Source: Escherichia coli (GTDB lineage: Bacteria; Pseudomonadota; Gammaproteobacteria; Enterobacterales; Enterobacteriaceae). From it: a stretch of 64,000 bases of DNA. Position numbers: made by a program. This document shows positions 5,840 to 8,800 of this stretch, in pieces (position 1 is the stretch's first letter; every line of letters starts with the position of its first letter). Location: NCBI RefSeq assembly GCF_013122565.1, contig NZ_CP053258.1; one strand, given 5' to 3'.

Positions 5840-8800
5840 TTATTTCACGGGATGAACGTTAAGTATAGGCGCTCTAAAATCAACAATTGATCGTCTGTGC
5901 CAGGGCGCTACGAATTTCAGAAATCACCTGGCTGGGTTCGTTTGTTGCGTCGATGATAATATGCGCAACTTCGCGATATAGCGCATCGCGTTCTTCCAGC
6001 ACTTCCTGAACTTCTTCGCTCAGCGGTTTTCCCGTTAAGGTTGGCCGTAAATCTTCTTCCGGTGCAGCTTGCAGTCGGTTAACCAGGACTGAAACTGGCG
6101 CACACAAATAAACCACGATTCCGTTATTTTGCATGAAGCGACGATTAAATTCCGTCAGAATAATGCCGCCCCCCGTGGCGATAACGGTGGATGGCGCAGT
6201 TACCGCTTCCAGCGCCGCCGTTTCTCTGGCGCGAAATCCCGCCCACTCTTCCCTTTCGACGATCTCCGCGACCGTCATACTGAGCTGTGATTGCAACCAC
6301 TGGTCGGTATCGACAAACCGACGGTTAAGCGAATCGGCAAGGGCCATTCCGACCGTTGTTTTACCACAGCCCCGAGGCCCGATCAGAAAAAGAGGTTGTG
6401 TCATCGTGGGTTTTCCCCAATAGGTCGCAATGCGGCGAAAGCCGGTATCATGAGAATAGCGATCATACCATCAAACTAGTACAATTTCGATTGTAAAGAA
6501 AAAATTACACTTAAAGTGAAAATCTCAATACATCCCTTACTATACCAATAAATATTCAAGAATGAAGTGTAAATAATAAATTACATTTAGCCACGACTAC
6601 GTTGCACTTCCAGCCACCACTTATCCAGCTCCGCAGCAAAGGCCTGGCGGTCACGTTGTGAAAGGCTATCTGGTCCGCCGGTCTGGATCCCACTGGCACG
6701 TAAGGTATCCATAAAATCGCGCATCGTCAGGCGCTCACGAATGGTCGCTGGCGTGTAACGTTCACCGCGCGGATTAAGCGCCGCAGCGCCTTTCTCGATG
6801 GCTTCAGCAGCCAAAGGTATATCTGCGGTGATCACCAAATCGCCCGCTTCACACTGCCGGACAATTTCGTTATCGGCAACGTCGAAACCTGCCGCGACGC
6901 GCAGCGTACGAATAAATCGCGATGGCGGCACGCGTAAACTCTGGTTTGCTACCAGTACCAGCGGCATCTGCATACGTTCCGCCGCGCGATACAAAATCTC
7001 TTTAATTACATTGGGACACGCGTCAGCATCCACCCAAATTGTCATAAAGTCATCCTTTGTTGGGTAATCCTCTATTGTGTCGCGCTTTTGCCTTCCGGCA
7101 TAGTTCTGTTTATGCTTCTGCCAGCGATTATCAAAACAATGAATTTCACGGCAGGAGTGAGGCAATGGAAAAGAAAATCGGTTTTATTGGCTGCGGCAAT
7201 ATGGGAAAAGCCATTCTCGGCGGTCTGATTGCCAGCGGTCAGATGCTTCCAGGGCAAATCTGGGTATATACCCCCTCCCCGGATAAAGTCGCCGCCCTGC
7301 ATGACCAGTTCGGCATCAACGCCGCAGAATCGGCGCAAGAAGTGGCGCAAATCGCCGACATCATTTTTGCCGCCGTTAAACCTGGCATCATGATTAAAGT
7401 GCTTAGCGAAATCACCTCCAGCCTGAATAAAGACTCTCTGGTCGTTTCTATTGCTGCAGGTATCACACTCGACCAGCTTGCCCGCGCACTGGGCCATGAC
7501 CGGAAAATTATCCGCGCCATGCCGAACACTCCCGCGCTGGTTAATGCCGGGATGACCTCCGTAACGCCAAACGCGCTGGTAACCCCAGAAGATACCGCTG
7601 ATGTGCTGAATATTTTCCGCTGCTTTGGCGAAGCGGAAGTGATTGCTGAGCCGATGATCCACCCGGTGGTCGGTGTGAGCGGTTCTTCGCCAGCCTACGT
7701 TTTTATGTTTATCGAAGCGATGGCCGACGCCGCCGTGCTCGGCGGGATGCCACGCGCCCAGGCGTATAAATTTGCCGCTCAGGCGGTAATGGGTTCCGCA
7801 AAAATGGTGCTGGAAACGGGAGAACATCCGGGGGCACTGAAAGATATGGTCTGCTCACCGGGAGGCACCACCATTGAAGCGGTACGCGTACTGGAAGAGA
7901 AAGGCTTCCGTGCCGCAGTGATCGAAGCGATGACGAAGTGTATGGAAAAATCAGAAAAACTCAGCAAATCCTGATGACTTTCGCCGGACGTCAGGCCGCC
8001 ACTTCGGTGCGGTTACGTCCGGCTTTCTTTGCTTTGTAAAGCGCCAAATCTGCCGATTTCAACCACTCACGATAGTGACTCATTTGTGGGTTCAGCGGCG
8101 CAACCCCCACACTAATCCGTAAAGTTACCTGTGGCGTATTCGGCAAGCGTAACGTGTTTAGCCCTTCATGCACCCGTAACATGGCGGTAATGGCGCTCTC
8201 AGCTGGCGTACCGGACATGATTACTGCAAACTCATCGCCGCCAAACCGACCAATCACATCGCTACCGCGCAGGGTAATTTGTAATTGTCGGGTAAGCGCC
8301 ACAATCGCCTCATCACCCACATCATGACCCCAGGTATCGTTGATGCTCTTGAAATGGTCGATGTCGATAATCAGTAACGTTGCATCGCGATTATGCCGCC
8401 GACAGTTATCAAATTCATTGCGTAACATAGTTTCCCAATGACGTCGGTTATACACGCCCGTCATACCGTCGCGGGTACTCATGACCTGCAACCTGCGTTT
8501 ATGTTCCGCCAGTTTGGTTGCCGTCTGGTAGCTGACCCAGCCAAACAGCAGAGGATAAATGACAATAATGGGAAGGGAGAGCCACCATTCCAGCGGCGCA
8601 CTATTGAACGACACGGTGATGCCCGTCAGCTCGAGGGTGACAAGGCAGGAAACCACCATCAACACCAGACCCGCGACAAACAGACGGGGGCCGCCTGCCC
8701 CCATCAAATTCAGACACATAATCATCAACATCGCGGTGGAAGGCAGCACGTTTACGCCCATTACGCCTACCCACATTCCCGCTAATACTGCATCGGTTTT

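Follow-up and report, generated by a model that had tools for sequence, protein, structure and literature searches.

The control of aroL, which encodes shikimate kinase II, by TyrR and TrpR is already known and has been textbook material since the 1980s-90s. The aroL operator of Escherichia coli K-12 reportedly contains a single TrpR site and three TYR R boxes. Of the boxes, 1 and 3 are said to be essential and 2 dispensable, and the TrpR site is said to be adjacent to box 1. The K-12 boxes were reportedly protected by TyrR, and the mutation of a box reportedly led to the loss of tyrosine repression. Phased DNase I hypersensitivity, indicating looping, is also said to have been seen, and an IHF site is said to have been proposed.

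Two other operators can be compared with that of aroL. The aroF-tyrA operator resembles it in possessing several TyrR boxes, one of which is set apart upstream, and in the use of hexameric TyrR in tyrosine repression. In K-12, the two best boxes of aroF-tyrA are 52 bp apart, at -112 to -95 and at -164 to -147 from the start codon. Unlike aroL, aroF-tyrA is not known to have a TrpR site, and its boxes are upstream of and over the promoter, where those of aroL flank the transcription start. Among E. coli promoters, inputs from both TyrR and TrpR are otherwise found only at mtr, which has a one-mismatch TyrR box at -128 to -111. The roles of the two regulators are different there. TyrR is an activator at mtr, where repression is dominated by TrpR, whereas at aroL the dominant repressor is TyrR.

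AroL expression is inhibited by TyrR-tyrosine and by TrpR-tryptophan (PMC3473263; PMC5343134). In the Enterobacteriales, aroLM has been assigned to the TyrR regulon, with sites in 10 genomes, and to the TrpR regulon, in 4 genomes (PMC5343134). The RegPrecise-based supplement of that study gives the regulon membership of aroL without site sequences. In a tyrR mutant of Y. pestis, aroL was up 4.7-fold (PMC4325908). Knock-down of tyrR derepresses aroL, and trpR was without detectable effect in the same study (bioRxiv 10.64898/2025.12.20.695731). Tyrosine-mediated repression of aroLM and aroF-tyrA has been attributed to hexameric TyrR, which blocks the access of RNA polymerase (PMC10170061). The TyrR dimer fills strong boxes only, and the hexamer that is induced by tyrosine and ATP fills strong and weak boxes together (PMC6524683).

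The aroL locus

The window is the whole stretch of DNA that was analysed, 64,000 nucleotides of contig NZ_CP053258.1 from an E. coli assembly (GCF_013122565.1). Around positions 5600-7200 it is E. coli chromosome. A 1.6-kb query from this part matched 5,425 of 5,426 complete E. coli genomes, and the genes annotated under the match are yaiA, aroL, yaiI, and proC. The coding sequence of aroL, the regulated gene, is found at 5880-6404 on the minus strand. It is an open reading frame of 174 amino acids that is annotated as aroL in 5,425 E. coli genomes and as b0388 in K-12. The yaiI coding sequence (6587-7045, minus strand, 459 nt) was identified from the list of open reading frames and from the RefSeq and K-12 annotation, and its stop codon is at 6587-6589. 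Positions 6405-6586 are the whole yaiI-aroL intergenic region, 182 bp from the start codon of aroL (6404) to the stop of yaiI.

This intergenic region differs from that of K-12 at 3 of its 182 bases, which are 6447, 6507, and 6533. In the alignment, the distal TyrR box, the TrpR half-site, and both -10 elements that are described below are identical to those of K-12. The window is about 0.5% from the nearest complete genome and carries further private substitutions. The locus is the aroL operator itself, rather than a lookalike. It is the same locus as the operator described in K-12 (Lawley & Pittard 1994; DeFeyter et al. 1986), and the main transcription start coincides with that of high-throughput maps of K-12. 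One of the differences is at position 3 of the proximal box, which is G in K-12 and T in the window.

Two TyrR boxes in the intergenic region

An earlier note on this DNA had pointed to two palindromes similar to TyrR boxes in the intergenic region, each with one mismatch to TGTAAA-N6-TTTACA. Both 18-mers, TGTAAAGAAAAAATTACA at 6492-6509 and TGTAAATAATAAATTACA at 6568-6585, were found where it had put them, and each has the single mismatch. On the aroL strand, which is the minus strand, the proximal box (6492-6509) is TGTAATTTTTTCTTTACA and the distal box (6568-6585) is TGTAATTTATTATTTACA. Both boxes keep G2 and C17, and a T at position 6 (TGTAAT on the aroL strand) is the deviation from the consensus that is common to both. 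The box centres are 76 bp apart in the window, or about seven helical turns. A 22-nt direct repeat that is present in the region is simply the two boxes.

The distal box does abut the yaiI stop, as the note had it, with a single base (6586) between the box and the stop codon. The description of the boxes as being upstream of aroL is correct for the coding sequence but not for the main transcription start at 6531, which the boxes flank. The proximal box is probably TYR R box 1 of the K-12 literature, and the distal box is presumably TYR R box 3. In K-12, both boxes are reportedly needed for tyrosine repression, and the effect of TrpR is reported to require TyrR. With this assignment the layout here would fit the K-12 operator.

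There are no other sites within one mismatch of the consensus on either strand of the 64-kb window. A mean of 0.12 such matches is expected from dinucleotide-preserving shuffles. Allowing two mismatches adds only one match in the window, at 45640, and this one is without the right arm. The positive control was a scan, with up to two mismatches allowed, of 47 kb of K-12 sequence in the surroundings of eight genes of the TyrR regulon. Nine of the 10 matches are 71-181 bp upstream of aroP, aroG, tyrR, tyrP, aroF (two), mtr, and aroL (two). In the remaining match, the G2/C17 pair is absent.

To explore the conservation of the boxes, aroL loci were taken from representative genomes, and 25 upstream sequences from Escherichia and Citrobacter, those of the window and K-12 included, were aligned. 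Both boxes are at the same place in all 25, and the box-to-box spacing is 74-76 bp in each of them. Column identity is 0.91-1.0 in the box arms, 0.78-0.90 in the N6 centres, and 0.58-0.77 in the flanks and spacers. The distal box has a mean column identity of 0.96, with 13 of its 18 columns invariant, and its mismatch at position 6 (TGTAAT) is itself invariant (25 of 25). In the proximal box, column identity is 0.91-0.92 in the arms and 0.78 in the centre. A one-mismatch box is also present upstream of the aroL gene of Winslowiella. The half-site arms appear to be under purifying selection, as would be expected of a palindrome that is contacted by a protein.

Both sites show the features by which a TyrR box can be recognized in sequence, namely the consensus, G2/C17, promoter context, regulon specificity, and conservation. 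Because the arms are conserved, G2 and C17 are kept, and the pattern is specific for TyrR-regulon promoters, the boxes appear to behave as functional palindromic operators. It is very likely that these palindromes represent the pair of high-affinity TyrR operators in the E. coli aroL-yaiA-aroM operon. The fit with the TyrR/TrpR regulation of aroL that the note had proposed is also borne out, since the gene on the 3' side is aroL and its repression has been stated (PMC3473263; PMC5343134). The papers on aroL and TyrR that were found give its regulation or mechanism but no box coordinates. A full-text literature search with both orientations of the boxes, in the window and K-12 alleles, returned nothing relevant.

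Genuine operators were in this case picked out by reading the sequence without tools. The same reading missed the TrpR half-operator, the candidate middle box, and the promoter elements.

Promoters and transcription starts

The main transcription start of aroL, P1, is at 6531 on the minus strand and gives a leader of 127 nt. In supplement file 2 of Kim et al. 2012 (PMC3415461), the sole aroL start is at NC_000913.2 405502, with 136 reads and a 5'UTR of 127 nt. The 51-mer that is listed upstream of NC_000913.2 405502 matches this region of the window, which places the start at 6531 on the minus strand. An independent data set, Cappable-seq of cells grown in M9 glucose to mid-log, also has a start at window 6531, with an RRS of 4.7 and an enrichment of 6.2 (PMC4782308, supplement file 1). 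An extended -10 element, TGGTATAGT (6539-6547, minus strand), is 8 nt upstream of the mapped start. Its TGnTATAGT is present in all 25 aligned sequences. A good -35 element was not found for P1. The distal box is at -54 to -37 of the start at 6531 and the proximal box is at +23 to +40. Thus, the two boxes bracket the main promoter, and the leader that is transcribed from P1 includes the proximal box.

It is probable that there is a second promoter, P2, with its start at 6454 on the aroL strand and a leader of 50 nt. A triphosphate 5' end at U00096.2 405579, which is window 6454, was detected by Cappable-seq with an RRS of 7.35 and an enrichment of 3.9 (PMC4782308). This start is absent from the aroL entries of Kim 2012, and neither aroL nor these coordinates are listed in the SMRT-Cappable-seq supplement. 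The extended -10 element of P2, TGGTATGAT, is at 6462-6470 on the minus strand, eight bases upstream of the start. All 25 sequences have it as TGnTATGAT, and a -35-like TCGAAA is found at 6485-6490. When 6300-6700 was scanned with the promoter consensus, TCGAAA-17-TATGAT with its upstream TG (6490-6462) was the only promoter-like match. The proximal box is at -55 to -38 of P2, an offset that is within 1 bp of the one between the distal box and P1 (-54 to -37). To our knowledge, a start at 6454 is outside the classical description of aroL. The possibility that a module of box plus promoter had been duplicated in tandem was also considered, and it was ruled out, as the similarity of the spacers is no better than that of shuffles.

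A putative TrpR site, a candidate middle box, and IHF

TrpR operators are palindromes of CTAG-containing half-sites, about GTACTAGTT.AACTAGTAC. A TrpR operator-like site, GTACTAGTTTGATGGTAT, is present at 6465-6482 on the minus strand. Its left half is a good match and its right half is a poor one. The left half is the exact half-operator GTACTAGTT (6474-6482, minus strand), which is at +50 to +58 of P1 and at -28 to -20 of P2. GTACTAGTT occurs once in the window, compared with 0.13 expected. It is conserved in 24 of the 25 sequences and is degenerate in C. sedlakii, which retains the extended -10 element of P2 despite the decayed half-site. The right half, TGATGGTAT, overlaps the conserved -10 element of P2, and therefore its conservation cannot be attributed to TrpR. 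Because this half is degenerate, the full TrpR pattern had no match across the fetched loci. The putative TrpR site is half convincing.

A candidate for a weak middle TyrR box, TGTATTGAGATTTTCACT, is found at 6515-6532 on the minus strand. It would cover -1 to +17 of P1, and its centre is 23 bp from that of the proximal box. It was placed by this spacing and by the three boxes that are reported for the K-12 operator. On K-12 NC_000913.3, the counterparts would be at 406300-406317 (proximal box), 406277-406294 (middle box), 406224-406241 (distal box), and about 406327-406344 (TrpR site). The candidate has four mismatches, keeps G2 and C17, and has a mean column identity of 0.64. It is not conserved outside of Escherichia, as other species have 4-10 mismatches at the aligned position. 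For IHF, a scan of 6405-6586 with the consensus WATCAANNNNTTR and up to one mismatch allowed found nothing, and the window as a whole shows no enrichment of the pattern.

Possible mechanism of repression

The mechanism that is most likely is the closing of P1 by a TyrR hexamer through both boxes. This follows from the literature on TyrR and from the geometry of the boxes around 6531. A TyrR dimer could occupy each of the strong boxes. With tyrosine and ATP, TyrR would form a hexamer that could hold both boxes at once, and possibly the weak box over +1 as well. The hexamer would loop out or cover the core promoter, such that RNA polymerase would be unable to bind or escape and aroL would be repressed. 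The TrpR half-operator, which is just downstream of the proximal box, could provide a minor tryptophan input. The looping between these two particular boxes is what we infer from the layout.

Several observations are at odds with this explanation. The candidate middle box is unconserved, the effect of TrpR on aroL was absent in a recent study, and the IHF match is absent. The P2 start at 6454 is downstream of both boxes and would be outside of the loop. Repression may involve more than a loop around P1.

Two independent modules, instead of one loop, are a less likely explanation. Each box would repress its own extended -10 promoter locally, by way of the -35/UP region, and TrpR would act on P2 itself, where it would cover the spacer and the -10 element. 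The two triphosphate 5' ends on the aroL strand, 6531 and 6454, agree with such an arrangement, as does the equal geometry, within 1 bp, of box and promoter in the two cases. The two extended -10 elements are found in all 25 sequences, and that of P2 persists even in the sequence with a decayed TrpR half-site. The half-site is at -28 to -20 of P2. However, P2 is in one data set of transcription starts only and is missing from Kim 2012. The two spacers are dissimilar and give no indication that a module was duplicated, and the conserved spacing of 74-76 bp is a prediction of looping. The need for both boxes and the requirement of TyrR for the TrpR effect, as they are reported for K-12, are better accommodated by cooperation between the boxes. 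We consider two separate modules to be unlikely, and the hexamer that closes P1 through both boxes is preferred.

A related proposal is that P1 and P2 are tandem promoters, with a strong TyrR box at the same position just upstream of each -35 region and TrpR over the spacer and -10 element of P2, and that the change of G to T at 6507 tightens repression. This is put forward tentatively, as a possibility that comes close to an even prospect without reaching it. If it is true, the classical picture of three boxes and a loop around one promoter would be incomplete. TrpR and part of the TyrR input would then act on a promoter that classical work overlooked.

It is highly improbable that the palindromes arose by chance, without any part in regulation, in an intergenic region that is rich in AT. 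Two matches were reached in 1 of 100 shuffles of the window, but the arms and the spacing are conserved across two genera while the neighbouring bases drift, the pattern is specific to TyrR-regulon promoters, and aroL expression is known to depend on tyrR. The idea that the distal palindrome is the terminator hairpin of yaiI, and not an operator, is barely credible and was rejected, for although the box begins one base after the yaiI stop and a 5-bp RNA stem is possible, the fold is weak (-3.7 kcal/mol, z = -0.05 against shuffles), no T-run follows it, a scan of 6300-6700, the yaiI-aroL gap included, found no terminator-like site, and the proximal copy shares the sequence yet is not at the end of a gene.

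Annotation of the control region and the allele at 6507

What is gained here is that the 182-bp control region of this strain is annotated, with its boxes, two promoters, two starts, and TrpR half-site. Shikimate-pathway engineers and TyrR researchers may have an interest in the conserved P2 downstream of both boxes, and possibly also in a rare natural allele that brings the proximal box nearer to the consensus. The two-promoter architecture and the private allele are modest refinements of a classical system.

The allele is the T at 6507, where K-12 has G. This is position 3 of the proximal box, which begins with TGTAAT in the window and with TGGAAT in K-12. The K-12 box, TGGAATTTTTTCTTTACA, has two mismatches compared with one in the window, and so the proximal box would not reach its one-mismatch score without the T. 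Judged by the consensus, this T predicts somewhat tighter TyrR binding. All of 5,398 complete E. coli genomes have the other base, as K-12 does, and it is at this one base that the best matches all depart from the window. Metagenome contigs were scanned for exact matches to the allele as well, and there were none. Since the window has other private substitutions, the T at 6507 is regarded as one private allele among many and not as evidence of selection. The same T is present in five Citrobacter sequences.

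Promoters and transcript starts upstream of aroL

The aroL gene probably possesses a second promoter on the minus strand, located within 6454-6490. This promoter has an extended -10 element, TGGTATGAT (6470-6462, minus strand), of the form TGnTATGAT, and this form is kept in all 25 Escherichia and Citrobacter sequences of the alignment. A transcript start was mapped by Cappable-seq at U00096.2 position 405579, which corresponds to position 6454 of the window, with an RRS of 7.35 (PMC4782308 supplement). The start at 6454 is absent from the TSS list of Kim et al. (2012). The spacer and -35 region of the second promoter are overlain by the predicted TrpR half-site (6474-6482, minus strand) and the proximal TyrR box (6492-6509).

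Within the TrpR half-site there is also a good -10 element on the plus strand, TACAAT (6480-6485). A weak antisense start supported by 4 reads (Kim et al., 2012) falls at 6493 on the plus strand. A transcript from this position would be antisense to yaiI and would head to proC. On the aroL strand, yaiI transcripts may continue into aroL by read-through, because no terminator-like structure was found between the two genes (6555-6600).

The aroL leader (6407-6438, minus strand) contains two small hairpins predicted from the alignment, with a consensus energy of only -8.7 kcal/mol. The first, UCGC...GCGA (6438-6425), has a compensatory change from U-A to C-G between Escherichia and Citrobacter. 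The second, UGGGGAAAACCCA (6419-6407), would hold the Shine-Dalgarno sequence inside it.

Variation in the TyrR boxes

At 6507, the aroL strand of the window has T and K-12 has G, and this T reduces the mismatches of the proximal TyrR box from two to one. Of 5,398 complete E. coli genomes, none carries the T allele, and an exact-match metagenome scan gave no hit for it. Five of the aligned Citrobacter sequences have T at the equivalent position. Two nearby positions, 6623 and 6635, also have substitutions private to the window. Across the 7.6 kb of 2600-10200, the window is separated from strain A16, the closest genome for this region, by 116 substitutions, an identity of 98.5%. Their plus-strand spectrum is lopsided (G>A 36, C>T 15).

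Elsewhere in the window, only one further site, TGTAAATGATTTTTTATT (45640-45657), has two mismatches or fewer to the TyrR consensus. It is without the right-arm ACA and is probably a chance match.

In Klebsiella pneumoniae, aroL transcription starts at NC_009648 position 371238, giving a 144-nt leader (PMC3415461 supplement). Upstream of this start is a TyrR-like box with two mismatches, TGCAATGATAAGTTTACA. The box overlaps an extended -10 element, TGATAAGTT. TyrR control may thus be retained in K. pneumoniae with a different arrangement of box and promoter.
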